From positions 32,862,001 through 32,926,000 of the forward strand of contig OZ076409.1 of assembly GCA_964187785.1 (NCBI GenBank): DNA of 64,000 bases. Direction: 5' to 3'. Positions 1,599-44,469 of this stretch are shown in pieces. Position 1 is the stretch's first letter. Every line of letters starts with the position of its first letter. The notes beneath the pieces are model-generated. The model was not told where the DNA came from. It was given only the letters and a program-made list of their open reading frames with translations, and made no database searches. The DNA comes from Amphiscolops sp. MND2022 (taxonomy: Eukaryota). The translations under genes and the position numbers were made by a program.

Positions 1599-1609
1599 AC
1601 CTTTTCACA

Positions 1610-19300: not shown

Positions 19301-21857
19301 TTTTACTTAAGTTTTAACAATTTGATTTTTCTTCACATTCAAAAATTCAAGGCAAATGGTTTGACTAATATTCTCCTTTTAAGACAGTTGTTTTTGGCTG
19401 GTGGTTGGATGCAGGAATGGAGAGCAGTCAAGTCTTCGGATCACAATAAATCATAGTAGTTACCATTTCTCTCATTGAAAACCAAGGATGCATTTGTCGA
19501 GTTATAGCCCTCTCTGTAGTTTATGATATTCGTAAATTATATTAATTTGTTTAAAGATGATGATCAAATAGAATCAAAGATTAAAGTTCTGTCATCGAAC
19601 AACGAATTTCAAACTTTCGAAGCAAAACAAGAAAAGTTTGAAATTCAATTTGTGGAGTTTTTGTAACAATTACAGTTTTCGGTGAAAAAAGAAAATTTGC
19701 AATTGAGAAGGAGTTAACTAAGTTTCGAAGTGATTCGCAGTTGAGTTCAAAAAAGTAACATACGTCAGACAAAAGTTCATTTGAAATCGAAAACAACGAA
19801 CACTATAACATTTACTGCTTCAGAAATAAATCACACATCGAGTGTATTCGTCTTGGCATTTTGAAGTCGTTACGAAATTGAATACAGATATCGCAGCATC
19901 AAAAGTCGCCCGATTGGAGACTTTCACCAAAACCTTTCGTTGATTTCTATAATTTCCAGTTTCTGTTGTGCCGTGTTTGTTTCAGTTATTACAGCCTCGT
20001 GGATGTGGAGCTGGACGTGGATGATGTGACAGGAACACAGTGGGTTGTTGCTCGGGGGTCTCGTGTGACCTTTTTTAGACAAAAAGGATAGTTCTTCTCA
20101 GTATTGCATAGTGAGGATCGTTATCTTCCTGTCACCAAGTAATATTCCTCCTATTATGATGTTTCAAGAAAGTTTTCAGGCAAGCGGAAGTTGTCGTGAC
20201 TTCTGTTGAAATCCCAAGCTCGTTTTAAATGTTTGAAGTTACAAGGTATGCCAAAACAGGTTTTGGACTTTAAATTTACAAGGCCGTTAACTGTCCACAC
20301 TGGCGCCTCATTCCAGCCTAATGTACTTTTTACTGAATCAAAGGAAGTACTATTTATGGCATTTTTTGAAACAATTCCAGAACGAAATAGACGACATAGA
20401 GGCAGAGTACAATTGAAAAAATGCAATAATTTTTTTACTTAGGTTTTAACAATTTGATTTTTCTTCACATTCAAAAATTCAAGGCAAATGGTTTGACTAA
20501 TATTCTCCTTTTAAGACAGTTGTTTTTGGCTGGTGGTTGGATGCAGGAATGGAGAGCAGTCAAGTCTTCGGATCACAATAAATCAGAGTAGTTACCATTT
20601 CTCTCATTGAAAACCAAGGATGCATTTGTCGAGTTATAGCCCTCTCTGTAGTTTATGATATTCGTAAATTATATTAATTTGTTTAAAGATGATGATCAAA
20701 TAGAATCAAAGATTAAAGTTCTGTCATCGAACAACGAATTTCAAACTTTCGAAGCAAAACAAGAAAAGTTTGAAATTCAATTTGTGGAGTTTTTGTAACA
20801 ATTACAGTTTTCGGTGAAAAAAGAAAATTTGCAATTGAGAAGGAGTTAACTAAGTTTCGAAGTGATTCGCAGTTGAGTTCAAAAAAGTAACATACGTCAG
20901 ACAAAAGTTCATTTGAAATCGAAAACAACGAACACTATAACATTTACTGCTTCAGAAATAAATCACACATCGAGTGTATTCGTCTTGGCATTTTGAAGTC
21001 GTTATGAAATTGAATACAGATATCGCAGCATCAAAAGTCGCCCGATTGGAGACTTTCACCAAAACCTTTCGTTGATTTCTATAATTTCCAGTTTCTGTTG
21101 TGCCGTGTTTGTTTCAGTTATTACAGCCTCGTGGATGTGGAGCTGGACGTGGATGATGTGACAGGAACACAGTGGGTTGTTGCTCGGGGGTCTCGTGTGA
21201 CCTTTTTTAGACAAAAAGGATAGTTCTTCTCAGTATTGCATAGTGAGGATCGTTATCTTCCTGTCACCAAGTAATATTCCTCCTTTTATTGTTTCAAGAA
21301 AGTTTTCAGGCAAGCGGAAGTTGTCGTGACTTCTGTTGAAATCCCAAGCTCGTTTCAAATGTTTGAAGTTACAAGGTATGCCAAAACAGGTTTTGGACTT
21401 TAAATTTACAAGGCCGTTAACTGTCCACACTGGCGCCTCATTCCAGCCTAATGTACTTTTTACTGAATCAAAGGAAGTACTATTTATGGCATTTTTTGAA
21501 ACAATTCCAGAACGAAATAGACGACATAGAGGCAGAGTACAATTGAAAAAATGCAATAATTTTTTTACTTAGGTTTTAACAATTTGATTTTTCTTCACAT
21601 TCAAAAATTCAAGGCAAATGGTTTGACTAATATTCTCCTTTTAAGACAGTTGTTTTTGGCTGGTGGTTGGATGCAGGAATGGAGAGCAGTCAAGTCTTCG
21701 GATCACAATAAATCAGAGTAGTTACCATTTCTCTCATTGAAAACCAAGGATGCATTTGTCGAGTTATAGCCCTCTCTGTAGTTTATGATATTCGTAAATT
21801 ATATTAATTTGTTTAAAGATGATGATCAAATAGAATCAAAGATTAAAGTTCTGTCAT
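16307..21857 (+). repeat. Tandem array of five ~1.12-kb units
   Basis: Units start at 16307, 17353, 18475, 19597 and 20729 (GAACAACGAATTTC); near-identical ORFs recur in the ORF track. Confidence 0.97.
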
Positions 21858-22578
21858 AAGTGAAATATTTTAAGGTCAAATAATTAGGAGTTCCTTCAAT
21901 TAGTTCAAATGTCCTCAATATAGGAATGTTTCAGCTATTGCAGTTTGCTTGTTCTTTTGCTTCACGAACTTGCTGACAATCTCCCATGCATAGACAGGTT
22001 TTAGGTTATACTGATGATTTATTTTCCGAGATTTACAAGTTTTTCAATTTCACAGCGTCGACTAAAAAGTTAAAAGGGGAATAATCATTTGCTCCCATAT
22101 AGTTTTGTAATACACGTAAAATGATTAATTAAACAGACTCTTTGGACGCTCTAAAGGATTGAAACAAGAGCATAGAACGGCTACTGCTGATCGCTTTTCG
22201 CTACCTGAAGTGAAAACTGCCTCGCTATTTTTGCCTTTTGGACAGATAGTTTGTAACAAAAGTGAATTTCTATAATTATCCATATTTTACCATAAGAATC
22301 ACACGATGGACCACTTTGTAAAGTTGCACGTTTTGGATGCTAAATGACACCTGCTATTGAAAATAGCCTTTCCACTGCCGCATCACTTGCCCCAGAAGTT
22401 TTGTCAGTGCGCTCTGTGGCACACTTGACCAATATTGGCCTGCACAGAGCCGAAAAACCTGAAAGAGGATTTCTTTGCTACTTTCTAGCTTTGTAATGTG
22501 GTCCTAGTTACATTTTAGACTCGCTAGTAGTTTGTGTATATATATTCATTACAAATCGCAGGGGGGGGGGGGTTTGGC

Positions 22579-22678
22579 AAAAATTTCATTTCTACCAAAG
22601 ACTATGAGTCCCTCCCGGGACTCGAACCTCGCCAGTTGAAATGATGGGCCAGCGACCTAACCACTATGCCACGAAACC
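22579..22678 (-). ncRNA. tRNA-like Pol III cassette, left-arm copy
   Basis: On the - strand: A box TGGCATAGTGG, B box GGTTCGAGTCC and a downstream T5 run. Confidence 0.5.
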
Positions 22679-22734
22679 ATCTCAACCAGTATTTACAGGT
22701 TCTATATAAACCCAATAAATACCTAGTGAGCACA

Positions 22735-23065
22735 CCCCTCCTCCACACTCTACATGCAAAAATTGAAAAATTTTGAAAATCTTACAAAAACTCGGGAAAG
22801 TATCTGGAACAATCAGAAATGAAAAAAACCGCATCGTTGACATCAGAAAACAAAAAACGATAAAAAACTGTCAAAAATGTAACCCCCCCTTTACACTCTA
22901 CATGCAAAAAATTGAAATTTTTGAAAAACTCGGGAAAGGATCTGGAACAAACAAAAATGAAAAAAAAACGCATCGTTGACATCAGAAAACAAAAAAACGA
23001 TAAATGTCAAAAATGTGAACACAACCCCCCCTCCACAATCTACATGCAAAAAATCGAAAAATTTA
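22735..23065 (+). repeat. Subterminal ~140-150 bp direct repeats of the palindromic element
   Basis: TCTACATGCAAAAA recurs three times in the left arm; the right arm (38500-38695) has one unit fewer. Confidence 0.8.
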
Positions 23066-26000
23066 AAATTTTTCAAATAACCCAGAAATGGTGTGAAACA
23101 TTCAAAACTCTTGTTAGTTAAAAGCGTCTCAATCATCAATCATGAGGGCAAAAGGTCCCAGTAAACACTTCCTCAGGACATGTAAAATCTCAAAAACGAA
23201 CAAAAACAGAAAACGGAACTTGCTTCAACATGGAGTTTTGCAGCAAGATTTTGACCGTGGAAGACAACTAAAACCAAACTATTAGAAATGTTCTTTCTGT
23301 AAACCTCATTCCAACGGCAGTCATTCATGGGAAATGAGAAACCCAAATTCAAGAGTGCCCATGACTGACTTGTAAAGTCATTTAATTCCGCTGGTTGAAC
23401 AGCTATGAATTTAGGCCGCATTATGCTGTTTGATACGAAGCAAATTATTCATTTTACATAAATCCGTATAACTATAGTCATTGCTACCAGTGTTTATGCT
23501 AACCGAGGATAAACAGGACTATATACCAGCAAAGCCGGCAAAAGCAGGGCTCATGCTTACCAATTCCAATTGAGCATCATATCTGCTAATCAATGACAAA
23601 CATCGTACTTACACCTTCTGATCGTGATCATAAAAGTCTTAAAAATGTAAGATATTACTACGAAGCTCCTTTCAGCGAAGGGTTATTGAAATTTAGAAGC
23701 CAAGCATTTAACTTGTCTCGTTTTGGACTGTAAATGAGACATTATTGTGCCCATCAAGAAAAACTTTACCAGTCGGCTCTCTACCAGTAATATTCATCTC
23801 AATATCCAGGCGTTTAGTACTGCAGTTAATTTAAAAAATATATCAAAGAAATCCCTTGTGAAATCACCGATTTTTGGGTTTTCAAGAGAGACAATTTACG
23901 CTATCAAAACTTCTAAACCTTGTCTTTCTCATCTCAATGCTTGGGTATCTTTTGTCTCAAGTGTAACAGTCTGTAATCAATTGCAGGTCTAGTTTACATC
24001 CATTGCGCCAATTTTAGTACTGGATTTTTAAGCAAAAAATAAAACAGATAGTTAATTGCACTCGATCAAATCACAACCTGGTCATCTCAGGTAAATATAG
24101 CGAAGAGACTTCAAGTTACTTGTTTTCTGATCTTTGATACTTTCGATACTTTTCCAAAATCAAAACCTACATCTAGGGCTGTTCAGTCCCGCAGTTTCCG
24201 CCTAACTGGAGAATAAATTCCATATACCAATATATACTAGGTTTCATTGTGTTCAAGTATTTTAGTGATGGTCGAAAAATATGATAACTCCACCACTCCA
24301 ATTATATGCTTACCGATAATTCAAGCTGCTTTCAGAGAATAGAATAAATTGACATTTCGGAAACTTTCACAACAAAATGTCATGCAAACCGGGGTTTCCT
24401 TTCGATTACCTGCAAATTAGAATAGGTACTGCTTGAAAGTTGGAGAAAAGTCTACATATTGATAGAATTGCACGCCAGTGAGCTTTGTTTTTTGAAGGTT
24501 GCCTTGGATTGAAAAGAAAGGAAACCTTACGCTCATCTTCGTTTTCAATGGTACTTCTTGAATACATCCAACTGAGACACGGAGCTTTTATATAGACACG
24601 GAGCTCTGACCAAGAATTGAATGTTTCAGAATGCATCTACCTACGAATGAGGATTCTAAATAGTGTAAAGTCGTGACCAATCAAGAGTATGGTCTATATC
24701 GTCTCAAACATCATATCATTACCGCCCCAGCCTGACGGTAGATCAGCTGGATCTTTTCACTACTACATAGTCAAGTATCTCCCAATGTTTAGAGCTGTAT
24801 ATATTCAAAAAGTTCACAATGCCTAGAGCTGCATATTCATGCACTTCCCATTTTCCAGAGTGAACGTTTTCTGCTAAAATTGTCTCTTTCTTGATGCCGA
24901 GAATTACATGGAAGGTTTTGAATATTATACGTTGCTATTTTTTATAATTCATGCAATCTCAACATGAGACTGACAACATTTGTCAGTTATAAAAGCAACT
25001 TTAAAATGAGTCAGATTGAGTACGCAAAAGCTCCACTAAACCAGCTGACGCACGTTCAACAACTGTAATAAACACTTACACATACTGTGTCGGTACCGCT
25101 TTTGATCTTATCCAGCGTCGCACTCTGCAGAGTCTGTTTGCTCAATTATTTTCTAATTGCTTGACTGATGTTAAAAACAAATGCCACCCGGGACACGCTA
25201 TTGAAGCTACTGTTTAATGATTAATCACAAGTACAAAGGGCCGACGTCGCTTTCATGTTTACACAGCGTGTCGCTCTGTTTGATCAATCTGGAATTTGTA
25301 ACTACGGAGATCTATATGCCACTCGCGACACGCCTATTGAAGCTACTGTGTAATAAACAATCAAAAATACAAAGTTCTGGTGTCGCTTTCATGTTTACAC
25401 AGCGTGTCGCTTTATTTAATCAATATGAAATTGGCAACTACAGAGATCTATTGATCCAATATCAATCTTGCATCCGGTCTGCTCGACCAAAACAAAAACA
25501 ATCCATACTAAATTTTGTTTACGATGAACTAGCGAATGGAAATGATTCGAATTTTGAGGTCTCGATTCTGTTTCAATCATAAGTATCTTGTTTAAAAACA
25601 TTCATCAAATTTAGTGAATGAAAAAAGAATAGAAAGCCATTTCGGTGGTGTTAAAGTTTTGTGCCTGGTAAACATTGTTTTGTATGCAACAAGTTCTCTG
25701 TTGTGTCAAATGTGATTGAGATCCTCCCAATCCAGACGGCAGTACGGGGGAGAAGAAAATCAAAAAGAGGATTGCTCAAAGCTATACGGGGGCTGCTGAC
25801 GTCAAGAAGCAAAAACTGCTGATAAGAAGGAATGAAAAGTTGTACAACTCATTTCAAAAGTAATTGCAGCATACAAGTTTTGTTAATTTTCCTGTTTTCA
25901 TATCCATTAATCGTAGTTAAATAGGTTTTTTGAATGTTTTTGTTTCTATTTCATTTTTCGTGCATCGGTACATCCCATCTTCTCAATCGTTTTTGTTTGA

Positions 26001-29000
26001 TGTGAACTGTGCTACAATGCTTTCTTTTGTTTGCCCCTGATTTTGTCTTTTCTTCAATCTACCCTTTTTATCATTAGTTTTTTAATCATTTATTTCGTTT
26101 TTGTTTCAATTGCATACGCTCCTCTCCTCATTTACGCTCTATCCCATCTTATACTGTAACGTATCGATTTGAGTTTATTTTTGATGTGTGTTTTTTATTT
26201 TAAGTGTTGTTGTTCCCTTCCTGTGGTATCCGATCTTTTTTGCAATCTTCACCTCATACGTTTAAAATAATTACTTGATTTACCTTTTTAATGTGCTTTA
26301 TTCTATTTAATCCTGTCGTTGTTCCAACTCTGTACGTTAATGGAGTATTCAATATTTAGCTAATCCGCACTATTTCATTTGTAAGTGTGATGCTTTTGTT
26401 TAATCTTGAAGTCCAGTGAAGTAATATATACTCGATATATACATTTTTTCACCTCGTAGGTTTTTGAATTAGTTTCATCATCCCGAGTTTTTTTTTCGTT
26501 GTTGAGATAGTATTGGGTATTGAAAACACTTCGTGAAAAACTACCCAAAAACTTTTTCACACCATTTCATAGCAACCTTGATGAAATATCTTTTTCCGAG
26601 CGTTTTTGAGTAAAGGAATGTTTTCGGTGGCGTTTCTCAAGAATGTGCAAGCATCTTGAAACTCGAATTGTCTCATGCAACTGTAAACCCCGTGATCCAA
26701 GCAACTGTTTTTGGTTTTCTATAGTCAATGTTAAGTAATTGTATCAACTTTCATTTACAGTTTTTTTGTAGACGAAATATGGTGGAAGCAATGCATGAAC
26801 AGCATCCGGACTTTTTCAAACAACATCGGAAAAAATTTCGGTACCTGGTGTTGGAAAAGGAACCAAGGATTGGGCTTGATATGCCTTCAGGATCAAATTA
26901 CGCATTTGGAGTTCATTCTTTTACCTCTGATTATCTTTGCGGCTTTGAGAAACAACCACACTACCATGTTCTTTTTGAGTGCGATTCCAGTAATAGAAAA
27001 GGTTACAATGTACCGTGCCTCTATTGAACGTTCTGTCTACTGTTGGCGGATTGTTCGAGTCTCGTCATGCAAGGTGGAATTATGAATCGTCTGCAGGTTG
27101 CAATGAAGTACAACGTAAAAGAAAACAAAACCTTGCCAGCGCAGGGTCGACGCAAAGTTCCTGTTGTTCAAATCAGACGAGACAAAAGTGTTCAAACTGG
27201 TTTTTTACCGACTGCCACGTTTAGCCGATTTCAGCAGTTGATTCAAGGCCCATCAGCTGCAACTTTGTACAGAATCTTAGACATTCTCAATGACGGATAC
27301 GGAAGCATCGACACTACTAATTTGTATTTTTCGATTGACAATTCCAAAACTTTGTAAAGCTTGCACAGTTTATGAGGAATACAATGTGGCAAGAATATAA
27401 TCTTCAAACCAGTGTTTCCTAGTCAAGGAAAAGTCAGTGTTTCCTAGTTTAAGGATTAAAACTGAGCAGTCAGGTATAAATAAATTGGATCATTGTGTAC
27501 TGACAGGTTTGCACTATCAATAAATCATCGGAACGCTGGTCACGCTTAGTAGTAAAAATTGTTTACATGATGAAGTTGCGCCGTTAGATTCAAACGAATT
27601 GGATCATTGTGTAGTGGCATTTTAACGCTGTCATTAATTCATATGAATGTTGCGCATATTGACAGTGTGACGGAAGCTGTCAAAGCATGAAGAAGCAGGA
27701 GTATCAGATTCGCTACACTAGGAAACGAGAACTGGAATTTCATGCATGTAATTTGGTTCTGTACATGTACTGTCTAGCCAATGAGTCAGGTCAGATTTTG
27801 AGATATAGTACTCCAGGGTACAAGCGTGGTTTATTCAAGACTATATACTCAATGATTAAACTGCAACACATGCTTTGTTTGCCGTTGCAAAATTAATTCT
27901 TTTCAACTCCGTCAAGCAACTCGTTTCAACCAGTTCTTTCAAGACTCAAAACTTCACGGTAGAGCAAAAACTTTGATAGAATGTGCCCACTCAAACACAT
28001 TATACTTTGGTTGTTCCCAAATCCAAAGGCGTTTAGTGTTAACCCGAATTATTAACTCTCAAGCTCAGATATCAATCTAGAGAAATAGAAAACGACCAAA
28101 ATGTATATTCGTTTTTGAGTTTTGATTTTTGGTGAACAATTGGGCACATTCTTCAACTTGTCAGCAATTGACCTTCCATGAAACTACCAATGCAGACTTT
28201 CACTGGTGTGTCTGGTAACTCGCGGTTCACATTTTATGAAACTTGGTTCAATAAAACAATAGCAATAATTGAAGAAGCATGGTGGGAGGACGTCTGGTCG
28301 ATAAAAAGCTCAGTTTCAATCCCAAACGATTTGTTTATTCTGCTGCGAGTGGAATGTGTATCGGGAACTAATCCAAACAGCTTCAACCTAACGGACACTG
28401 TAGAAACGCCATTGACTACAACAAAAGTTTATGATCGTTTCTAATTGCCGTATGGTGTACGACAGCTTCTGTTTGACATTGACTGTCGAAATATACCCGT
28501 TTCAGAAAATCAGTTGGGTTGTATGACAGACTTGGAAAATTTAGAAAGTTACTGGGATATAAGAGGTACCCCTGAATCACCACAAGACGCTTCATGTTCT
28601 CTGTCGCCAAATATTGCCGACACAAACCAAGACCAAATTGCTTGTGACAGTCCAATCAAATCAGGAACTAGCCCAGTAAAGGAATGACCGCCAGCGCCAA
28701 AGAAGAATAGAGTTGAAAAATTCAAAAGGACAGCATTGGAAATAGCTAAGCTTGATCTCGCAGACGTTTGACAAACTTTCTTGATGTGATGTTTTATTAC
28801 TTGTTTGTTTGTATCATCGTTCAAATCATTGCTTCAACTTTGTCATTCAAGTCATTTTGTAATAAACTTTTCAGCCATTCTTTTCTACTGCCTAGCTTGA
28901 TCACCTCACAGGAGTAAACTTGTGCAGCTTTGAACCTTTGAATCGCTGAAGAAAATTGATATCGCAGCTTGTCTCAACAATCGGACAGTGGGTGAGAAAA

Positions 29001-29926
29001 AAAACAAAATAGCCAAACCTTGATGGTGAATAACCCTTTACTTATATTTACTCTTCTTGGTGAAGCCAACTCTTTTCAGAAAACGAAAAATGATAAAAAA
29101 ATCTTTTCAGAAAATTAACTTTTCAATGGTAATTTGAATTCAATCCCCTCTTAGACTTTTGTCTTTGAATACAAACTCCAATACGTAGCATTGATTGTTT
29201 CTCAAGGAATGATCGATGGTCTCAGTTAAAATCAAATGTTTCATTGCTCGCTTGACGCGGTAGCCAGATGGAATAATTTCCATCTGTCTCCTGAAAGTTT
29301 TTTCATCTTTGCTCCTGAGGTCTTTCAAGTAAACTGACAAGATGAAAGGACCTTTGAACTCCTTTTTGTTTGGATCCACCAATTCTACAGAGAGCGATAA
29401 GCTTTCTCCGGAACTTGTCTCCAGAATAAGTTCGACCGTTACCTCAATTTAGCCCACGTCTTCACACTGTAGGTGTGTTTTACTAAAGACACACAATTTA
29501 GGTTCTTGCTCACTGACGATAATAGCTGCGAAGGCCTTGAGGTGCTCGAACGCTTCCTTGTCAATTTTTATTATTGCCATGCATTCTCTAGTACAAGTAT
29601 TCGTCAATATGGGTGTGCGAAAACCCACAGTCGAGTCCGAAAAAAATCACATAAATTTGTGTGTACATCATCAGGCATTGTCTGAAGTAGAGCAGACTTT
29701 TTTAAAACTAATTTTCAAGGTCCATGTTTAATCTAGTTCTTTCAAACGTTTGGGTACGACAATCTATTTTCGTACTTTCGATATGAAACCTAACTAATGT
29801 TGATACCCATTTTCCAGTTTCACCGGTAAAACGATGTGACAATGTTTCTTGAAAAGACATCTTTCTAGGCATTCATTCTCACCAAACCATGTTTTATAAT
29901 TTTGACGTCTTTTTCAGAGTTTCTCT

Positions 29927-31106
29927 ATGAAAAGCAACGCTTCAACTTCAAATTTGCCAGAGCAGCGAAACACTGAGGACCACAAGAGTTTCAACCAAAA
30001 TGAAGAGCCAATTGCCAGTTTCAACAAATTGCGAGATGAGGTTCTTTGCTTGAAAACTCTACTCTCTGAATTGCGAGATGAGTTGTGGTCACTAGCGAAA
30101 AAATTCCCCTTACTCAATGTAAAAGTGTTCCAGTACATCCCCTCAATGCAACTTTTTACTGCACAAATGCGAGAAGAGGTATCTGAACTGAGGAATGAGA
30201 TGATTGAGATGAAAAGCGAAAACATTGTCCATGAAACAAGGAATACCTCTGGCTCTACATAAACTCTCGAGGTGTCGAGTAGAAGGATTGGAATAAAAGT
30301 AAACCTCAGCCTAAACTATTCAATGCAGCAAGAAGCAGTGGCGAAATCAAGGAAAACGCAGCAAGCGGTAGCGAAATCAAGGAAAGCAGCTCCGTTAAAC
30401 CTGTGGAAAGAGAAAGTCTAAACGAAGATGTCATAAAGCGTCAAAACAAATTGATTGAAAGTTACTCAAAAAAACATTGTTCCACTTGAACAATTTTCTC
30501 GCCATTTGCTCGAGCGTATAAAAAGTCTGGAATGTGGCCGTAATGGGTCAGTTGTTTGGAAACTCAGTGGCTTCAACCATATTTTCGAGGCGGCGAAAAG
30601 AGCTGAAGTCAAATCAAAAAATGAAAAAGTGCCAACAGATTTTAGTAGTCCAATAATTCTCACAGGTTCTCCCGCATACTCTTTGTATGTGAGACTATTT
30701 CCATTTGGATGCGAGGTGGCAGCTGGCAATCACGTTTCTATTTTTGTTGCCCTAATTCCCGGAATGTATGATGCCATTCTCAAATGGCCATTCAAGTCTA
30801 CAATCAAAATCAGCGTCATTAGTCAACATGATCCTGCTGATAGATCAATAGACGCGATCAATAGTTCCTAGTGAAAAAACTGGGAGCTGCTTCAAGCGTC
30901 CGTCTTCTTGTAAAGGAAACATGTCGGTTGGTATACTGCATTTCCTACCACACAGGTGAGACAACATTAAACAAAATTCGTTGTGAGTAAGTTTGAATAA
31001 AATTGTGATCAATTTTTTTCCAAGCTTGTTACATGGATGCAGCAGAGATCATGGATACCTAAAGGAGGATTCAATGTTCATCGAAGTTCCCTTTTCTGCT
31101 GAATGA
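29927..31106 (+). pseudogene. TRAF-like gene (coiled coil + MATH domain), disrupted, with an intron at 30956-31024
   Basis: VVWKLSGF, SSPIILTG..YSLYVRLFP.G, GNHVSIF..L.PG.YDAILKWPF, CFKRP....N...G...F and GYLKEDSMFIEV are TRAF-MATH hallmarks; frameshift near 30850 and stops upstream. Confidence 0.85.
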
Positions 31107-33865
31107 AGTATTTATTTTGTGAACAAAAATGTCAAGTTCGTTTTGTTTTATAATCCTAAATTTAAATATCAAACTGAACTTTCAACCTAGTTTTCATGAG
31201 CTGCTATAGACGATATGAATGCAAACGTTGACTGATTATACTCAATTATCAGAAAAGTTTCATCAGTGTATATCTTAAAATTTTCCCGATTCAGACTTCT
31301 TTAACTTCAATCGGTAACCTGAGAGCTAAAATTTACAATATCAGTCGTTAGCGGTACGTTATTAAATGATAACATCAGAGAGAGACCTTTTCAAACAAAA
31401 CGGATATCACCTCGTTTATCATTAAACTGGAAAATGGGTATCAAAATTAGTTCGATTCAATATCGAAAGTACGAATATAGATTGTCGTACCCAAACGTTT
31501 GAAAGAACTAGATTAAACATGGACCTTGAAAATTAGTTTTAAAAAAAGTCTGCTCTACTTCAGACAATGCCTGATGGTGTACACACAAATTTATGTGATT
31601 TTCTCTCGGACTCGACTGTGGGTTTTCGCACACCCATATTGACGAACACTACTAAAAAATGCATGGCAATAATAAAAATTGACAAGGAAGCGTTCGAGCA
31701 CCTCAAGGCCTTCGCAGCTTTTATCGTCAGTGAGCAAGAACCTAAATTGTGTCTTTAGTAAAACACACCTACAGTGTGAAGACGTGGGCTAAATTGAGGT
31801 AACGGACGAACTTATTCTGGAGACAAGTTTCGGAGAAAGCTTATCGGTCTCTGTAGAATTGGTGGATCCAAACAAAAAGGAGTTCAAAGGTCATTTCATC
31901 TTGTCAGTTTACTTGAAAGACGTCAGGAGCAAAGATGAAAAAACTTTCAGGAGACAGATGGAAATTATTCCATCTGGCTACCGCGTCAAGCGAGCAATGA
32001 AACATTCAATTCTTACTGAGACCATCGATCATTTCTTGAGAAACAATCAATGCTACGTATTGGAGTTTGTATTCAACGACAGAAGTCTAAGAAAGGATTG
32101 ACTTCAAATTACCATTGAAAAGAAAAGTTAATTTTCTAAAAAGATTTTTTTTATCATTTTTCGTTTTCTGAAAAGAGTTGGCTTCACCTAGAAGAGTAAA
32201 TAGAAGTGAAGGGTTATTCACCATCAAGGTTTGGCTATTTTGTTTTTTTTCTCACCCACTGTCCGATTGTTGAGACAAGCTGTGATATCAATTTTCTTTA
32301 GCGATTCAAAGGCTCAAAGCCGCACAAGTTTACTCTTGTGAGGTGATCAAGCTAGGCAGTGGAAAAGAATGGCTGAAAAGTTTATTACAAAATGACTTGA
32401 ATGACAAAGTTGAAGCAATGATTTGAACGATGATACAAACAAGTTATAAAACATCACATCAAGAAAGTTTGTCAAACGTCTGCGAGATCAAGCTTAGCTA
32501 TTTCCAATGCTGTCCTTTTGAATTTTTCAACTCTATTCTTCTTTGGCGCTGGCGGGCATTCCTTTACTGGGCTAGTTCCTGATTTGATTGGACTGTCACA
32601 AGCAATTTGCTCTTGGTTTGTGTCGGCAATATTTGGCGACAGAGAACATGAAGCGTCTTGTGGTGGTGATTCAGGGGTACCTCATATCCCAGTAACTTTC
32701 TAAATTTTCCAAGTCTGTCATACAACCCAACTGATTTTCTGAAACAGGTATATTTCGACAGTCAATGTCAAACAGAAGCTGTCGTACACCATACGGCAAT
32801 TCGAAACGATCATAAACTATTGTTGTAGTGAATGGCGTTTCTACAGTGTCCGTTAGGTTGAAGCTGTTTGGATTAGTTCCCGATACACATTCCACTCGCA
32901 GCAGAATAAACAAGTCTTTTGGGATTGAAACTGAGCTTTTTATCGACCAGACGTCCTCCCACCATGTTTCTTCAATTATTGCTAGTTTTGTTGAACCAAG
33001 TTTCATAAAATGTGAACCGCGAGTTACCAGACACACCAGTGAAAGTCTGCATTGGTAGTTTCATGGAAGCTCAATTGCTGACAAGTTGAAGAATGTGCCC
33101 AATTGTTCACCAAAGATCAGAACTCAAAAACGAATATACATTTCGGTCGTTTTCTATTTCTCCTCTAGATTGATATCTGAGCTTGAGAGTTAATAATTCT
33201 GCTTAACACTAAACGCTTTTGGATTTGGGAACAACCAAAGTATAATGTGTTTGAGTGGGCACATTCTATCAAAGTTTTTGCTCTACGGGTTGCTTGACGG
33301 AGTTGGAAAGGAATAATTTTGCAACGGCAAACAAAGCATGTGTTGCAGTTTAATCATTGAGTATATAGTCTTGAATAAACCACGCTTGTACCCTGGAGTA
33401 CTATATCTCAAAATCTGACATGACTCATTGGCTAGACAGTACATGTACAGAACCAATTTACATGCAAGAAATTCCAGTTCTCGTTTCCTATTGTCGCGAA
33501 TCTGATACTCCTGCTTTTTCATGCTTTGACAGCTTCCGTCCCACTGTCACAACATGCGCAACATTCATATGAATTAATGACCGTTGAAATGCCACTACAC
33601 AATGATCCAATTCGTTTGAATCTAACGGCGCAATTTCATCATGTAAACAAATTTTACTACTAAGCGTGACCAGCGTTCCGATGATTTATTGATAGTGCAA
33701 ACCTGTCAGTACACAATGATCCAATTTATTCATACCTGATTGCTCAATTTTAATCCTTAAAAAAAAACAATTTTCGCTGTCAAGCACTGGCTGACGTTGA
33801 CAAGGAAACACTGGTTTGAAGATTATATTCATGCCACATTGTATTCCTCATAAACTATGCAAGCT

Positions 33866-34441
33866 TTACAAAGTTTTGGAATTGTCAATCGAAAAATACA
33901 AATTAGGAGTGTCGATGCTTCCGTATCCGTCATTGAGAATGTCTAAGATTCTGTACAAAGTTGCAGCTGATGGGCCTTGAATCAACTGCTGAAATCGGCT
34001 AAACGTGGCAGTTGGTAAAAAACCAGTTTGAACACTTTTGTCTCGTCTGATTTGAACAACAGGAACTTCGCGTCGACCCTGCGCTAGCAAGGTTTCGTTT
34101 TCTTTTACGCTGTACTTCATTGCAACCTGCAGACGATTCAGAATTTCACCTTGCATGACGAGACTCGAACAATCCGCCAACAGTAGACAGAACGTTGAAT
34201 AGAGGCACGGTACATTGTAACCTTTTCTATTACTGGAACCGCACTCAAAAAGAACATGGTAGTGTGGTTGTTTCTCAAAGCCGCAAAGATAATCAGAGGT
34301 AAAAGAATGAACTCCAAATGCGTAATTTGATCCTGAAGGAATATCGAGCCCAATCCTTGGTTCCTTTTCCAACACCAGGTACCGAACATTTTTCCGATGT
34401 TTAAAAAAGTTCGGATGCTGTTCATGCATTGCTTCCACCAT
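33866..34441 (-). CDS. Hypothetical protein with HUH-like motif
   Basis: 191-aa ORF containing YAFGVH...KQPHYHVLF; the left-arm copy (~26779-27357, +) has TCA>TGA at 27025. Confidence 0.55.
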   Translation of the reverse strand: MVEAMHEQHPNFFKHRKNVRYLVLEKEPRIGLDIPSGSNYAFGVHSFTSDYLCGFEKQPHYHVLFECGSSNRKGYNVPCLYSTFCLLLADCSSLVMQGEILNRLQVAMKYSVKENETLLAQGRREVPVVQIRRDKSVQTGFLPTATFSRFQQLIQGPSAATLYRILDILNDGYGSIDTPNLYFSIDNSKTL

Positions 34442-35365
34442 ATTTCGTCTACAAAATAAACTGTAAATGAAAGTTGATACAATTACTTAACATTGACTAT
34501 AGAAAAACCAAAACAGTTGCTTGGATCACGGGGTTTACAGTTGCATGAGACAATTCGAGTTCCAAGATGCTTGCACATTCTTGGGAAACGCCACCGAAAC
34601 ATTCCTTTACTCAAAAACGTTCGGAAAAGGAAGTTTCTTCAAGGTTGCTATAAAATATAAAGGTGTGAAAAAGTTTTTGGGTAGTTTTGCACGAAGTGTT
34701 TTCAATACCCAATACTATCTCAACAACGAAAAAAAAACTCGGGATGATGAAACTAATTCAAAAACCTACGAGGTGAAAAAATGTATATATCGAGTATATA
34801 TTACTTCACTGGACTTTAAGATCAAACAAAAGCATCACACTTACAAATGAAATAGTGCGGATTAGCTAAATATTGAATACTCCATTAACGTACAGAGTTG
34901 GAACAACGACAGGATTAAATAGAATGAAGCACATTAAAAAGGTAAATCAAGTAATTATTTTAAACGTATAAGAGGTGAAGATTGCAAAAAAGATCGGATA
35001 CCACAGGAAGGGAACAACAACACTTAAAATAAAAAAAACACACATCAAAAATAAACTCAAATCGATACGTTACAGTATAAGATGGGATAGAGCGTAAATG
35101 AGGAGAGGAGCGTATGCAATGGAAACAAAAACGAAATAAATTATTAAAAAACTAATGATAGAAAGGGTAGATTGAAGAAAAGACAAAATCAGGGGCAAAC
35201 AAAAGAAAGCATTATATCACAGTTCACATCAAACAAAAACGATTGAGAAAATGGGATGTATCGATGCACGAAAAATGAAATAGAAACAAAAACATTCAAA
35301 AAACCTATTCAACTACGATTAATGGATATGAACTCAGGAACACTAACAAAACTTGTATGCTGCAA

Positions 35366-35731
35366 TTACTTTTGAAATGAGTTGTACAACTTTTCATTCC
35401 TTCTTACCAGCAGTTTTTGCTTCTTGACGTCAGCAGCCCCCGTATAGCTTTGAGCAATCCTCTTATTGGGATTGGGAGGACCCATGCTAATGTTTTCTAC
35501 ATTCGCTATCATTTCCTGAAACTCCTTGACAGTGAGACCCACTCTCTGTTGCAAGCGAAAGTCATCTTGATCCTCTTTTTTCTTGAACAACTTGATGTAG
35601 ATGTATGTAAGACCACTGTCTTTATATGTGTTTGTGGTCACGCGGACAAGTCGTTTATCAGATGATGCCACGTCAATATGGGCATCTCCAAACTCGAGAT
35701 CTTTTGAGGCTGTGAGAGAGCTGAAAGTCAT
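35366..35731 (-). CDS. PC4-like ssDNA-binding protein
   Basis: RLVRVT.NTY..SG.TYIYIKLF.......QQRVGLT..EFQEM...V.NI follows the PC4 strand-strand-helix pattern; most of it is absent from the left arm (~25720). Confidence 0.55.
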   Translation of the reverse strand: MTFSSLTASKDLEFGDAHIDVASSDKRLVRVTTNTYKDSGLTYIYIKLFKKKEDQDDFRLQQRVGLTVKEFQEMIANVENISMGPPNPNKRIAQSYTGAADVKKQKLLVRRNEKLYNSFQK

Positions 35732-38700
35732 CGCTGATTTCTGCTACATTTTGACTGGTGATTATGCTGTTCTACCGGTGATCTCAAGACAAATGTCTGA
35801 AAAAAATTAACTGACAAAAAACTTGAAGTAAACTGAAGCTCAATGACATTTGACACACCAGAGAACTTGTTGCATACAAAACAATGTTTACCAGGCACAA
35901 AACTTTACCACCGAAATGGCTTGCTATTCTTTTTTCATTCACTAAATTTGATGAATGTTTTGAAACAAGATACTAATGATTGAAACAGAATCGAGACCTC
36001 AAAATTCGAATCATTTCCATTCGCTAGTTCATCGTAAACAAAATTTAGTATGGGTTTTTGTTTTGGTCGAGCAGACCGGATGCAAGATTGATATTGGATC
36101 AATAGATCTCTGTAGTTGCCAATTCCATATTGATTAAATAAATCGACACGCTGTGTAAACATGAAAGCGACACCAGAACTTTGTATTTTTTGATTGTTTA
36201 TTACAGTAGCTTCAATAGGCGTGTCCGCGAGTGGCATATAGATCTCCGTAGTTACAAATTCCAGATTGATCAAACAGAGCGACACGCTGTGTAAACATGA
36301 AAGCGACGTCGGCCCTTTGTACTTGTGATTATTCATTAAACAGTAGCTTCAATAGCGTGTCCCGGGTGGCATTTGTTTTTAACATCAGTCAAACAATTAG
36401 AAAATAATTAAGCAAACAGACTCTGCAGAGTGCGACGCTGGATAAGATCAAAAGCGGTACCGACACAGTATGTGTAAATGTTTATTACAGCTGTTGAACG
36501 TACGTCAGCTGGTTTAGTCGAGCTTTTGCGTACTCAATCTGACTCATTTTAAAGTTGCTTTTATAACTGACAAATGTTGTCAGCCTCATGTTGTTGAGAT
36601 TGCATGAATTATGAAAATAGCAACGTATAATATTCAAAACCTTCCATGTAATTCTCGGCATCAAGAAAGAGACAATTTTAGCAGAAAACGTTCACTCTGG
36701 AAAATGGGAAGTGCATGAATATGCAGCTCTAGGCATTGTGAACTTTTTGAAAATATACAGCTCTAAACATTGGGAGATACTTGACTATGTAGTAGTGAAA
36801 AGATCCAGCTGATCTACCGTCAGGCTGGGGCGGTTATGATATGATGTTTGAGACGATATAGACCATACTCTTGATTGGTCACAACTTCACACTATTTAGA
36901 ATCCTCATTCGTAGGTAGATGCATTCTGAAACATTCAATTCTTGGTCAGAGCTCCGTGTCTATATAAAAGCTCCGTGTCTCAGTTGGAGGTATTCAAGAA
37001 GTACCATTGAAAACGAAGATGAGCGTAAGGTTTCCTTTCTGTTCAATCCAAGGCAACCTTCAAAAAACAAAGCTCACTGGCGTGCAATTCTATCAATATG
37101 TAGACTTTTCTCCAACCTTTCAAGCAGTACCTATTCTAATTTGCAGGTAATCGAAAGGAAACCCCGGATTGCATGACATTTTGTTGTAAAAGTTTCCGAA
37201 ATGTCAATTTATTCTATTCTCTGGAAGCAGCTTGAATTATCGGTAAGCATATAATTGGAGTGGTGGAGTTATCATCTTTTTCGACCATCACTAAAATACT
37301 TGAACACAATGAAACCTAGTATCTATTGGTATATGGAATTTATTCTCCAGTTAGGCGGAAACAATGCGGGACTGAACAGCCCTAGATGTAGGTTTTGATT
37401 GTGAAAAAGTATCGAAAGTATCAAAGATCAGAAAACAAGTAACTTGAAGTCTCTTCGCTAGATTTACCTGAGATGACCAGGTTGTGATTTGATCGGGTGG
37501 AATTAACTATCTGTTTTACTTTTTGCTTAAAAATCCAGTACTAAAATTGGCGCAATGGATGTAAACTAGACCTGCAATTGATTACAGACTGTTACACTTG
37601 AGACAAAAGATACCCAAGAATTGAGATGAGAAAGACAAGGTTTAGAAGTTTTGATAGCGTAAATTATTTCTCTTGAAAACCCAAAAATCGGTGATTTCAC
37701 AAGGGATATCTTTCATATTTTTAAATTAACTGCAGTACTAAACGCCTGGATATTGAGATGAATATTACTGGTAGAGAGCCGACTGGTAAAGTTTTTCTTG
37801 ATGGGCACAATAATGTCTCATTTACAGTCTAAAACGAGACAAGTTAAATGCTTGGCTTCTAAATTTCAATAACCCTTCGCTGAAAGGAGCTTCTTACATT
37901 AGTAATATCTTACATTTTTAAGACTTTTATGATCACGATCAGAAGGTGTAAGTACGATGTTTGTCATTGATTAGCAGATATGATGCTCAATTGGAATTGG
38001 TAAGCACGAGCCTTGCTTTTGCCGGCTTTGCTGGTATATAGTCCTGTGTATCCTCGGTTAGCATAAACACTGGTAGCAATGACTATAGTTATACGGATTT
38101 CTGTAAAATGAATTAATTTGCTTCGTATCAAACCGCATAATGCGGCCTAGAATCCATTCATAGCTGTTCAACCAGTGGAATTAAATGACTTTACAAGTCA
38201 GTCATGGGCACTCTTGAATTTGGGTTTCTCATTTCCCATGAATGACTGCCGTTGGAATGAGGTTTACAGAAAGAACATTTCTAATAGTTTGGTTTTAGTT
38301 GTCTTCCACGGTCAAAATCTTGCTGCAAAACTCCATGTTGAAGCAAGTTCCGTTTTCTGTTTTTGTTCGTTTTTGAGATTTTACATGTCCTGAGGAAGTG
38401 TTTACTGGGACCTTTTGCCCTCATGATAGATGATTGAGACGCTTTTAACTAACAAGATTTTTGAATGTTTCACACCATTTCTGGGTTATTTGAAAAATTT
38501 TAAATTTTTCGATTTTTTGCATGTAGATTGTGGAGGGGGGGTTGTGTTCACATTTTTGACATTTATCGTTTTCTTTTGTTTTCTGATGTCAACGATGCGT
38601 TTTTTTTTCATTTTTGTTTGTTCCAGATCCTTTCCCGAGTTTTTGTAAGATTTTCAAAAATTTTCAATTTTTGCATGTAGAGTGTGGAGGGGGGGATGCT

Positions 38701-38750
38701 CACTGGGTATTTATTGGGTTTATATAGAATCTGTATATGCTGGTTGAGAT

Positions 38751-38849
38751 GGTTTCGTGGCATAGTGGTTAGGTCGCTGGCCCATTATTTCAACCGGAGA
38801 GGTTCGAGTCCTGGGAGGGCTCATAGTCTTTGGTAGAAATGAAATTTTT
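38751..38849 (+). ncRNA. tRNA-like Pol III cassette, right-arm copy
   Basis: A box 38758-38768, B box 38801-38811, TTTATATA about 30 nt upstream, TTTTT at 38845-38849; acceptor stem pairs poorly. Confidence 0.5.
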
Positions 38850-39933
38850 GCCAACCCACCCCCTGCGATTAGTAATGAATATATATACACAAACTACTCT
38901 CGCTTCATGACGATATGAAACCACTGACAAAGTTAAACAAATTGAACGAAGAAGGACCATTCAGTGTGAACAAAAATTGCATCTAGAGCCGACAAAGAGC
39001 GCCAACTAAAAACAAGTGCTAAGGTACTTAGTGCAAGGCTCGCGAACTGGGCAAAATACAACAGAATTTTTCTTCAGATCAAAAACTCAGTGAATGGTCA
39101 ACTATTCAACAGATTTTTGGCTCAATATTTAAAGAGCATACAAATATGGGCAAAAATTTGCTTGAGTGTTTCGGTACCGTGAAATTTTCGAATAGTAAAA
39201 ACTGTCTCTGAAAGGTCCCCTCTGTCGTCTCAAGATTTTTCGGTTTTTGAGCATCAAGGGGAGAGACAACTTTAAACATTCCCTTCTTTTCAAAGCTACC
39301 AATACAAAATAAAAGTAGATCATTTTTGGTATTTAACTGAGTTGAATGAAATGTGATTATATTAAAGCTATATATTTGGAGTGAAAGGGATGTTACAAAA
39401 CTTCAAAACAAAAATTTCTACGTGGAGAGCAGTTTGCTATTCGTTCTCACCGGGAGTAGACACTGATTTGCTTTTCCAGCCAATGATCTCGCAGCCCTTC
39501 AAATTCTTCGTCGTCATCCCCAAAACCCATGGCCCGCATGGTTGAATGGGAAAACTGTCTCCCCACCCTTTTCATTTCGTTCGCTGCACTCTATTATTTC
39601 ATATCACATACCTGAATTGACAGTTGCACCAATCAGTTCTGCATTGGCACCATAACTCATGCAGTCAGTTTATATTTGAAAATATATATTCCATCAGTTT
39701 TATTTACACCAAAATCATGAATCATAACACTGTGATTTAAACCTTAAATTGCTAGTTAATCAGCAAATTCTACGAAAACAAAGCAGCAGCCATTATTTAA
39801 CTCATTCGAAATAGAAGCACCGACTTCAAACGATTAAAAAATTTCATGAGAAATAGAAAACTAGATACAAACCCTTGGATCTACTTGATCGATTGGAGAT
39901 TTATTTACAGAGGCTGAATGAATTGAACACTTT

Positions 39934-40878
39934 TCATAGACCCTTATTATAATGAACATGAGTTAGAAAAGGTTGGTCAGTCCTGATTTTGGATTGCAAA
40001 CTGCTTTCAAGTCTGTCTATTTTGATGGTTGAGTGCTGGGGGAAAAGAGCAACAGCCACGGGGAGTACAAAGTAAGTACATATACCGATGAGAGATGCTT
40101 CCAAGAAGATGCTGAGTGAGCGGTCTAAAACTTTCTCCAAAACTAGGCCACGTTTGGAAAACTGTTTTTGAATTGCGCTCATTGCAAGTGTGGGAAAGAC
40201 CATAATCGGAATAGCGGCAGAAATTCTAGTAGCAACAACTTGCATCAAACACATACAACCCAAAAGTCTCGACTCTCCCAAGATTTTCCCACCAGTATCG
40301 TTCACTGTAATTCCTTTCAAAAGATCCTGCTGTCTCATGAGAGGCACATTTACGATGTTACCAGCGCATACTGCGAAGAATGGAACAAATTTAGAAGCAA
40401 GAGGATAACTAGATCGCTTAGCGATTTGTGACAACTTGTAAGACACCGCCACGGCTGTCCCTGTAGCACTCAAATAGGCAGTTATTATTTGCCCGGTCGT
40501 GAGAGAAGATTGTGCATTCCTATTGGTGTAGTTGCAAAAAGCCATGAAGGACTGATTGATCCACTGAGTTGTCACAAGTTGGAGAGGCGTTCGGTAAAAA
40601 GTTAGCATAAGAGCAGTTACTATAGTATTCCCGGGTATTTGGAAGCTCATTCTTCCAACAATGGGGTTCATTTCCTTAGTGTCAGGGTGAAAAGCTGACG
40701 CATACAAAGTTCTCGCCCAATGCAGATCACTATGATGAACCGTTTGAGGATTTTTCGCGAAATCCTCTAGAATATCTCTAGCGAAATGTAATTCTTGTTT
40801 CGATTTGAGCAGCCACACCGGACTCAGTACACCTTTGAAATATTTATATCGTTCGAAGAAAGAATCGCTTGAAGACAT
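39934..40878 (-). CDS. SFXN: Sideroflexin (mitochondrial inner-membrane carrier), intronless
   Basis: SAFHPDT, GRMSFQIPG, QWINQSF, NYTNRNA, PFFAV...N..NVPLMRQ and the terminal YNKGL are family signatures; intact 314-aa ORF. Confidence 0.95.
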   Translation of the reverse strand: MSSSDSFFERYKYFKGVLSPVWLLKSKQELHFARDILEDFAKNPQTVHHSDLHWARTLYASAFHPDTKEMNPIVGRMSFQIPGNTIVTALMLTFYRTPLQLVTTQWINQSFMAFCNYTNRNAQSSLTTGQIITAYLSATGTAVAVSYKLSQIAKRSSYPLASKFVPFFAVCAGNIVNVPLMRQQDLLKGITVNDTGGKILGESRLLGCMCLMQVVATRISAAIPIMVFPTLAMSAIQKQFSKRGLVLEKVLDRSLSIFLEASLIGICTYFVLPVAVALFPQHSTIKIDRLESSLQSKIRTDQPFLTHVHYNKGL

Positions 40879-41002
40879 CAGAGATCATTAGTTGAGAAGC
40901 ACCATTAACTCTAGAATTTGTTGCAAAATAAGAAAACAGTCGCATATATATATTTCTATTCATTTTTTCTTTTTCTTTATCAGATATCATGGATCTTCGT
41001 CA

Positions 41003-41830: not shown

Positions 41831-41889
41831 ATTTAGAGCCTCTACAACAGCACGTTTTGGATGCTAAATGACACCTGCTATTGAAAATA

Positions 41890-43382
41890 GCTTTCGACTG
41901 CCGCATCACTTGCCCTAGAAGTTTTGTTAGTGCGTTCTGTGGCACACTTGACCAACATTGGCCTGCTTATGAGAGCCTGGCTGCATTAGACGAAGTGGCG
42001 TGAACAGTCTGCTCAAAAAGTGGACTATTCAGTGTGAGATCTGTGTTGGGAGCAGGACGTTTCGGCAAAAAAAAATTTCGAGACGTTTCGGCAAATTTTT
42101 CATGCCGAAACGTCCCGTATTATCTTGGTCCCGTAATATCTTGGTTTTGCTTTTGGTTTTCTACAAACTGGTTGGGTCCAGTTTGTAGAATACCAGTTTG
42201 TAGAATTCTTTAATTGAAGAAAAACGATAAGACCAATAATGTAGGAATGATGGAAAGCATAAAACGTGCCTCGGATATGTCCCCATTTCCTCTAGTGCCC
42301 CGCGGCCCCTTGGGGCAGCTTATATTCCCATCTTGTTAAGCGAGGTCGAACAGGAGCAAAGACCTAGCGGGAACGGAGATCGCGAAGCTTTCGACTGCCG
42401 CATCACTTGCCCTAGAAGTTTTGTTAGTGCGTTCTGTGGCACACTTGACCAACATTGGCCTGCTTATGAGAGCCTGGCTGCATTAGACGAAGTGGCGTGA
42501 ACAGTCTGCTCAAAAAGTGGACTATTCAGTGTGAGATCTGTGTTGGGAGCAGGACGTTTCGGCAAAAAAAAATTTCGAGACGTTTCGGCAAATTTTTCAT
42601 GCCGAAACGTCCCGTATTATCTTGGTCCCGTAATATCTTGGTTTTGCTTTTGGTTTTCTACAAACTGGTTGGGTCCAGTTTGTAGAATACCAGTTTGTAG
42701 AATTCTTTAATTGAAGAAAAACGATAAGACCAATAATGTAGGAATGATGGAAAGCATAAAACGTGCCTCGGATATGTCCCCATTTCCTCTAGTGCCCCGC
42801 GGCCCCTTGGGGCAGCTTATATTCCCATCTTGTTAAGCGAGGTCGAACAGGAGCAAAGACCTAGCGGGAACGGAGATCGCGAAGCTTTCGACTGCCGCAT
42901 CACTTGCCCTAGAAGTTTTGTTAGTGCGTTCTGTGGCACACTTGACCAACATTGGCCTGCTTATGAGAGCCTGGCTGCATTAGACGAAGTGGCGTGAACA
43001 GTCTGCTCAAAAAGTGGACTATTCAGTGTGAGATCTGTGTTGGGAGCAGGACGTTTCGGCAAAAAAAAATTTCGAGACGTTTCGGCAAATTTTTCATGCC
43101 GAAACGTCCCGTATTATCTTGGTCCCGTAATATCTTGGTTTTGCTTTTGGTTTTCTACAAACTGGTTGGGTCCAGTTTGTAGAATACCAGTTTGTAGAAT
43201 TCTGGAATTGAAGAAAAACGATAAGACCAATAATGTAGGAATGATGGAAAGCATAAAACGTGCCTCGGATATGTCCCCATTTCCTCTAGTGCCCCGCGGC
43301 CCCTTGGGGCAGCTTATATTCCCATCTTGTTAAGCGAGGTCGAACAGGAGCAAAGACCTAGCGGGAACGGAGATCGCGAAGC
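41890..43382 (+). repeat. Three tandem 497-bp units
   Basis: Units start at about 41890, 42387 and 42884; an identical ORF appears at 42000, 42497 and 42994. Confidence 0.95.
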
Positions 43383-44107: not shown

Positions 44108-44457
44108 GGGTGGCTGTAAATAGGTCGAAATTTTCTGGTCGAAAGGACTGAGGTCGAACCTTTTGATCGAATTACAGGGATCGAATGGAATGCGGTCGAA
44201 TTTTATCGTGCTTGTTGTATGGCTCGGTCGCTTCGCTCCCTTCGCCAAGTAGCAACATTGAGGCATGGCCATATGGCACGTCGCTGCGCTTTGCTTCGCT
44301 CCTGCATTCAGGGCACTAGGGGTATGTGAACATATCTGACTACGTTATAAAAATTTCGATCCGAGTTGTTTCGATCCCATTCAAAAATTTGGTATTGTCG
44401 ACCTGAGGACTAACTCTGATTTTCGATCCCGTTCCTTCGACCTATTTCCGCCCACCC
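44108..44457. mobile_element. ~350-bp MITE, GGGTGG...CCACCC ends, 9-bp TSD CACACGCAC (Mutator-like)
   Basis: TSD at 44099-44107 and 44458-44466; TCGA-rich subterminal repeats. Confidence 0.88.
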
Positions 44458-44469
44458 CACACGCACAAT

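Follow-up and report, generated by a model that had tools for sequence, protein, structure and literature searches.

A RING-less TRAF-like gene of probable host origin carried by a palindromic element that has Polinton ends

How a TRAF-like gene came to lie between the two arms of a giant palindrome, and what it might do there for its carrier, is the question raised by a locus in the genome of Amphiscolops sp. MND2022, which was analysed within a stretch of 64,000 nt (the window). An initial annotation had described a palindromic element with a TRAF gene in its unique spacer, and the gene was indeed located in the loop (29821-31423) of a 16.4-kb palindrome, whose features are collected in Table 1. 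As a whole, the locus is best explained, with a probability of about 0.6 as judged from sequence comparison, by a copy of a host RING-less TRAF gene residing in the loop of a Polinton satellite and serving as a decoy that would damp host death or immune signalling.

Table 1. Features of the palindromic element and of its TRAF-like gene (positions in the window)
Feature	Coordinates	Strand	Remarks
Left target-site duplication CTCGCT, 6 bp	22520..22525	.	
Terminus AGTAGT...G-run	22526..22708	+	Resembles end of autonomous Polinton family
Left palindrome arm, about 7.3 kb	22526..29820	+	
Arm ORF orf207, left copy, broken	26725..27357	+	Protein with HYHVL motif
Arm ORF orf200, left copy, broken	28172..28760	+	
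Inner arm ORF fragment, directed away from spacer	29140..29448	-	Mirror copy 31793-32101 +
Unique spacer (loop), 1603 nt	29821..31423	.	
TRAF-like gene, whole	29927..31106	+	Putative coiled coil and TRAF-type MATH; ATG at 29927, stop 31104-31106
TRAF-like gene, exon 1	29927..30955	+	N-terminal helical region, TRAF-N stalk, most of MATH
KFPL-N-K-FQY motif, common to element and host paralogues	about 30098-30160	+	N-terminal helical region of exon 1
TRAF-N stalk	about 30420-30540	+	Exon 1
Intron, phase-2 GT-AG, 69 nt in this copy	30956..31024	+	Predicted from copy comparison and host paralogues
TRAF-like gene, exon 2	31025..31106	+	Last MATH helix and strand, then stop codon
Right palindrome arm, ending ACTACT	31424..38898	-	Mirror arm ORFs 32671-33060, 33866-34486, 35366-35743
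Arm ORF orf131	35366..35743	-	
Right target-site duplication CTCGCT, 6 bp	38899..38904	.	

The palindrome and its relation to resident Polintons

The arms of the giant inverted repeat (22526-38898, about 16.4 kb) are complementary at 94.5% over the inner 4.1 kb, 96.6% over the outer 2.9 kb and 89% over the terminal 0.4 kb. The loop matches at least 46 places in the 1.07-Gb genome, at least 35 of them near full length, this count being a lower bound as 40 of 84 candidates were scored. When 12 palindromes were examined, both ends were in range for seven, which were 15.9-17.7 kb long and all flanked by a perfect 6-bp duplication.

The longest arm ORFs, taken from two young copies, encode 207-210 aa. 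No polymerase or integrase ORF was found in the arms or the spacer, no packaging ATPase, protease or capsid genes were found in the element, and neither was an SF1 helicase fused to an inactive PolB, no arm ORF exceeding about 210 aa. The arm proteins are mostly under selection, with dN/dS values between copies mostly of 0.1-0.45: orf207 reached 0.08-0.28 and orf200 0.27-0.45, and orf131 showed 0.15-0.36 at larger distances and 0.57-1.06 at the shortest. Searches of the arm proteins against Pfam, PHROGs and PDB revealed nothing above the cut-off, orf200 being without match in Pfam or PHROGs. By eye, orf131 resembles a PC4-like DNA-binding protein; Pfam and PDB gave no match for it. For orf207 the fold model was of low quality (pLDDT 44), and Foldseek matched it best to HUH RepB domains, at non-significant E values of 0.3-0.7, and the matches of an orf207 homologue in the Atlas were unnamed and of low recognition; a HUH-like nature of the modelled orf207 is a weak lead only. 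A second MATH domain in the inner arm ORF was also considered and found no support in the Pfam search.

Inverted AG...CT ends with a 6-bp target-site duplication are the rule in Polintons, and this combination was detected in five of the seven full Polintons with both ends in range. Six Polinton loci picked by PolB score had only the general end pattern in common with the palindrome, and the matching Polinton family was located through a search with the terminus. The first 195 bases, used as a genome query, gave 40 scored matches, and ten out of ten further terminus-sharing loci, outside the TRAF list, were full Polintons, in which ORFs of the window's own Polinton, labelled PolB, integrase, ATPase, protease and capsid-type, found matches (labels taken from Pfam for PolB and integrase, and from weak matches and gene order for the others). 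The palindrome and these ten Polintons have 165-185 terminal bases in common at 87-91%, with the first 33 nt identical, and two terminal variants, identical over 33 and 36 nt, are present both in palindromes and in full Polintons. No match to the arm ORFs or to the TRAF gene was found in the ten, and past the terminus no homology to the arms was found at the 6 + 10 Polinton loci, drawn from at least 93 PolB matches.

Two other classifications agree less well with the data. An autonomous Polinton/Maverick would agree with the ends and the duplication, but PolB, integrase and packaging genes are absent; an internal-deletion derivative of a Polinton is disfavoured by the interior, which is not homologous beyond the terminal 165-185 bases at the 16 Polinton loci examined, a sample that may have missed a parent. 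Because Polinton ends are present but none of the genes of that family, the element is likely to be a helper-dependent satellite of a resident Polinton. The polymerase and integrase of the helper would copy and insert it in trans via the common ends, and it is the ends, the duplications and the length that suggest mobilisation and packaging in trans. Doubling of the arms would bring the element to the length of the helper (15.9-17.7 kb vs. 17.1-18.5 kb), a length that would suit packaging in the helper capsid.

Some further loci may be recorded here. The window itself contains a separate autonomous-type Polinton (1-11394), whose left end lies about 2.45 kb before the window, with ATPase, integrase (Pfam rve), capsid-type ORFs, protease, a split PolB and AGTAGT ends, and without the terminus sequence of the palindrome. 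In one helper Polinton copy (L210, 725-1339), an ORF with a hydrophobic N-terminus and, by eye, an EGF-like cysteine pattern is possibly a captured host gene. A rearranged cluster (L143-L144, G000 C9:11.685-11.705 Mb) holds three TRAF-bearing loops and nested arm pieces, indicating that palindromes recombine. Elsewhere in the window, a unit of 1122-1132 nt is repeated five times in tandem (16307-21938), its copies being 98-99% identical to one another and about 78% similar to a segment immediately beyond the Polinton end (11392-11912). There are also an uninterrupted 316-aa sideroflexin ORF on the minus strand (39934-40884; Pfam E 6e-92), a 497-nt unit present three times in tandem (41889-43382), and a region of 2.5 kb (44108-46568) whose 350-nt inverted arms match at 95%.

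The TRAF-like gene and its host relatives

The start ATG of the gene is kept in 44 of the 46 copies compared. Positions 30455-30868 match the Pfam family TRAF-mep_MATH (PF21355) at E 3.4e-14 (53.7 bits, cut-off 27.4), and a natural copy with an open frame reaches E 2.1e-19; no RING or zinc-finger family matched the element protein in Pfam at E up to 1. All 28 matches of a PDB search were labelled TRAF or TRAF complex, with TRAF1 ranked below TRAF4, 5 and 6. The putative coiled coil gave weak Pfam matches only (E about 0.1), its segments align to the TRAF-N stalk of the host proteins, and a proline breaks the stalk two heptads ahead of the MATH domain. By its predicted domains, the gene files with the RING-less TRAFs and not with TRAF2-6. 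The frame of this copy is broken by an in-frame stop (30260-30262) and by three frameshifts, near 30300, 30475 and 30845. The initial annotation had read MATH coding, absence of RING and zinc fingers and a disrupted frame, and all three readings agree with these data, the first through the profile search that it had proposed; its claim of a nearly filled spacer is correct as to the MATH and putative coiled-coil coding there and not as to the extent, since the gene covers about 74% of the spacer (1180 of 1603 nt).

A 69-nt GT-AG intron at 30956-31024, splicing in frame, had also been proposed, and was upheld by the 30 copies that could be scored among 42 stretches, the other 12 having missed the search motif through divergence or truncation. 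The 30 scored copies have without exception the donor GTGAGA and an acceptor CAAG ending after a T-rich tract. The intron ranges in length from 61 to 72 nt, with 23 of the copies having a length not divisible by three, and the distance from the acceptor to the GYLK codons is constant at 28 nt, in frame. In the copies read through, the exon-1 frames hit a stop just inside the intron. An alternative in-frame AG lies at 31042; the acceptor at 31024 gives the spacing nearest to that of the host proteins. Because of this comparison among copies, with its conserved sites, drifting length and constant exon-2 offset, the intron is genuine on comparative grounds, and 31024 is the predicted acceptor.

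A Pfam search of the genome scored at least 150 MATH matches among 440 candidates. Among the scored matches, the host paralogue H1 (G000 C3:90.87 Mb) has the element family as its nearest relative, at 53-58% identity, and both H1 and a second host paralogue, H2 (C3:25.70 Mb), are single-copy. Each of the two carries an intron that agrees with that of the element in codon and phase, plus one extra intron of its own in the region, which is absent from the element. As the proteins P0009, P0013 and P0014, predicted from other assemblies, run unbroken to the common intron, without the extra introns of H1 and H2, the element matches the older gene structure. Retention of the intron suggests that the gene would have been taken up from genomic DNA. 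A BEL/Pao-like retrotransposon (labelled by eye; L095-L096, G000 C3:90.872-90.879 Mb) was seen about 2.3 kb upstream of the first recognised exon of H1.

In a tree of 27 rows, from which 14 were left out (two redundant Gypsy rows, P0035, P0039, L054 and nine distant TRAFs), the element proteins, H1, H2 and the orthologues from acoels form one clade with 100/100 support, and five more typical TRAFs lie outside it. Within the clade they are nearest to P0011 and P0022 (88/87), not to H1 or H2. Queries with P0011 (128 of 586 candidates scored) and with an H2 exon (137 of 495) turned up no closer third host paralogue, and P0036 had no match in this genome at E 1e-60; the gene may have come directly from such a third paralogue. 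That the gene was captured from the host, as initially proposed, accords with both comparisons suggested at that stage, namely intron position, which is the same in the two single-copy paralogues, and phylogeny, which places the element in one clade with them. Host origin together with selection after capture (see below) is taken as very probable.

The cluster of P0009 holds three RefSeq isoforms of the acoel Convolutriloba macropyga (368-482 aa), one of them named TRAF6-A-like. No RING or zf-TRAF match was found in any of the three; the longest contains one cysteine-histidine remnant near its start, as H1 also seems to do, and the shortest (368 aa) covers roughly the same span as the element protein. 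A RING pattern was likewise not found upstream of the coding exons, in about 38 kb for H1 and about 8 kb for H2. Because the annotated acoel orthologue is also without RING, the gene copied by the element is, by these predicted proteins, one that was already RING-less and TRAF1-like. A dominant negative that had lost its RING on capture does not fit these isoforms.

Selection, decay and related cargo

Among the 46 copies, 38 were assigned to three subfamilies (12, 18 and 8) and eight remained unassigned, one duplicate locus having been dropped. The changes fixed between subfamilies in TRAF-C were 18 synonymous and 16 non-synonymous, with a dN/dS of 0.31 (binomial p 0.0007; McDonald-Kreitman p 0.022, uncorrected), in a test that comprises 34 changes in one of three regions tested and in which copies on unplaced contigs may be haplotype duplicates. 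For the N-terminal half, the between-subfamily dN/dS was 0.96, and the changes private to single copies also gave 0.96 overall. Pairwise dN/dS of TRAF-C was 0.20-0.33, matching orf200 and orf207. The MATH domain has been under purifying selection after capture, the N-terminal half has not, and each insertion has been followed by neutral decay. Two of the findings named at the outset as speaking against a captured modulator, an absent MATH match and neutral decay ever since capture, were not seen in this family, as the Pfam match and the dN/dS of the MATH domain among copies show; copies without the gene, also named there, belong to a sister family described below.

Exon 1 is open in nine of 45 copies, with open frames in all three subfamilies, and broken in the other 36, the number of breaks rising with arm-to-arm divergence (rho 0.44, p 0.01, n=34). 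Single-base indels lie at homopolymers in 40 of 52 cases (background 24%), so that some of the breaks may be slippage or assembly error. Indels that a subfamily has in all or nearly all of its copies preserve the frame, bar one at a poly-A run, and frameshifts are common to six of the eight copies of one subfamily and to 6-7 of the 18 of another, revealing that broken sub-lineages were copied onward. When 20 loci were picked by an arm gene, the whole TRAF gene was present in six, a part in three and none in the fetched range in 11, five of these last belonging to a sister palindrome family at dS about 1. The spacer of this sister family is ~660 nt long and without TRAF (three of three with both arms in range). 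Three such sister palindromes (L168, L171, L183) have the same arm ORFs at 55-75% amino-acid identity. Therefore, with a sister family that does without the gene and broken sub-lineages that are copied, the gene is dispensable for the copying of the element.

Members of the same TRAF clade were also detected in other mobile elements. Among the best 30 MATH loci fetched, 28 belong to two intronless multicopy families (19 and 9), and all five members checked lie directly behind env in Gypsy-type elements, one of which carries the TRAF gene between 907-nt LTRs that are 99.9% identical. The loci (L097-L112; G000 C1:53.66 Mb, C7:40.09 Mb and others) represent two Gypsy lineages with gag-pol and an env of the Monjiviricetes fusion family, each with an intact intronless TRAF ORF, likely in well over 100 copies, some of them very recent. 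Between Gypsy A and B, the TRAFs are 28% identical, pol 69% and env 60%. A further intronless sequence, P0033, is found on L195, a contig from a metagenome, where its neighbours include an IAP, two further MATH genes, a kinase and an HSP70. This contig (1-17785) is gene-dense and intronless, with an IAP (BIR plus RING), three TRAF/MATH genes and a MAM-domain protein, and its gene density and content make it look like a large animal DNA virus; a search of viral contigs with the alignment and with P0033 found no relative.

Proposed function and comparison with known systems

If host origin and the satellite reading are granted, a damping decoy is, by analogy with TRAF1, a role with somewhat better than even odds, because selection maintains the module for trimerisation and peptide binding and lets the N-terminal half drift. 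The stalk and MATH protein would trimerise alone or with host TRAFs, as mammalian TRAF1 suggests, and would occupy receptor tails or ubiquitin-ligase partners, relaying no signal and prolonging the life of the cell in which satellite and helper are multiplying. The benefit would be in trans, so that broken copies such as this one could still spread. The direction of the effect is uncertain because TRAF1 can also enhance signalling (PMC6305416) and the TRAF of ISKNV induces apoptosis (PMC3352826). Tentatively, the data may be read more widely, as an integrated gene-bearing satellite of animal Polintons with a palindrome sized to the helper capsid, selected genes of its own and a host immune decoy in its loop, and as a RING-less TRAF family recruited independently by three unrelated parasites (satellite, env-bearing Gypsy and large DNA virus), which would mark a control point of anti-parasite defence in acoel-type worms. 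In the open-access text searched, no account was found of a palindromic Polinton satellite, of this element or of this TRAF clade.

Other readings differ from the decoy in what the gene does or in how it was acquired. The gene could be a passive hitch-hiker, caught as the palindrome formed and never useful, its constraint being a residue of its time in the host or the work of a few host-domesticated copies. The 80% of broken copies, the onward copying of broken lineages, the sister family without the gene and the dN/dS near 1 of the N-terminal half would all suit this; yet the constraint was measured between element subfamilies, and thus postdates capture, and it equals that on two of the arm genes, open frames persist in all three subfamilies, the widely shared subfamily indels are in frame but for the one at a poly-A run, and the 40 of 52 single-base indels at homopolymers mean that some breaks are perhaps slippage or assembly error. 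This reading is already weakened, and we regard it as improbable. Slightly less probable still is a RING-bearing host TRAF that was shortened as it was captured and so came to act as a dominant negative against the parent gene. The element protein is without RING or zinc finger, the genome has at least one zf-TRAF locus, and the single zinc-finger-like remnant upstream in H1 is absent from the element, as such a truncation would predict, but all three annotated acoel isoforms are without RING and zf-TRAF, the 368-aa one covers about the span of the element gene, and the upstream sequences of H1 (about 38 kb) and H2 (about 8 kb) showed no RING pattern.

Unlikely, though less so than these two, is a protein that re-routes or boosts signalling, for instance towards stem-cell survival and division or towards a particle-releasing cell death. 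TRAF1 heterotrimers are described as enhancing cIAP recruitment (PMC6305416), ISKNV ORF111L as triggering caspase-8 apoptosis (PMC3352826), and L195 puts the same clade near an IAP; against this, ORF111L has a RING and the element protein does not, and an inherited element would gain little by killing host cells. A single capture followed by passage between elements, with the intronless Gypsy versions arising from a spliced transcript of the satellite or of a mobile ancestor, is a possible history that we hold to be the weaker one. A single mobile clade is not rejected by AU tests (p 0.17-0.34), the value being 0.27 when the satellite is joined to Gypsy family A and 0.17 when all three are joined, and the stalk proline is present in the satellite, Gypsy A, P0011 and P0026, with glutamine in H2 and the acoel orthologues. 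The best tree, however, has no such grouping, the Gypsy A and B TRAFs are far less alike (28%) than their pol (69%) and env (60%), the satellite copy cannot derive from intronless ones, and L195 retains a zinc-finger remnant absent from the satellite. Such a single capture would alter the history of the gene and not its likely function.

Returning to the decoy, TRAF cargo as such is already known, from Burro, MELD viruses and ISKNV. The nearest functional model is TRAF1, which is described as resembling a dominant negative, sequestering LUBAC through its MATH domain and boosting cIAP recruitment (PMC6305416). It is described there as a coiled coil with TRAF-C and without RING, and the element protein likewise has TRAF-C, no RING and a putative coiled coil; TRAF1 has one finger, as against at most one zinc-finger remnant in the host donor family (PMC6305416). 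It is not an orthologue, however: it ranks below TRAF4, 5 and 6 among the PDB matches, and the element protein falls in a separate clade with acoel sequences. The element gene also differs in being carried by a mobile element. The Burro/GYPSM1 giant Gypsy elements of planarians are reported to carry MATH_TRAF_C together with BIR and BCL2 motifs, and these domains were proposed to meddle in apoptosis (PMC6431247). Unlike the present DNA element, with its gene and host intron, Burro belongs to the LTR retroelements and encodes the domain as part of a polyprotein or in an accessory ORF; the donor family and the selection signal are known here, and Gypsy A and B are the closer parallel to Burro.

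Polintons/Mavericks are described as having terminal inverted repeats and a length of 15-25 kb (PMC6431247), and the accessory genes listed for MELD viruses and adintoviruses include homologues of TRAF, IAP and Bcl2 (10.1101/697771; PMC8502044). The element resembles Polintons in its inverted AG...CT ends and 6-bp duplications, and differs in its arms, which measure 7-8 kb, against about 150 nt, and whose small proteins are unrelated and under selection. Transpovirons are described as linear, with inverted ends, no virion module and dependence on a larger virus (PMC5499653); they and Tlr1 carry a large SF1 helicase, unlike the element, whose presumed helper is an integrated Polinton. ORF111L of ISKNV is reported as a virus-borne TRAF domain captured from an animal host, with a RING and pro-apoptotic (PMC3352826), and differs from the element protein by that RING, its virus group and its TRAF clade. 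The earlier records of TRAF cargo consist of a domain label only; at this locus the donor family, a retained intron and selection on the binding domain are visible, so that whether transposon cargo manipulates host immunity becomes testable. That different parasites have repeatedly come to carry members of one host gene family hints at a defence pathway in these little-studied animals.
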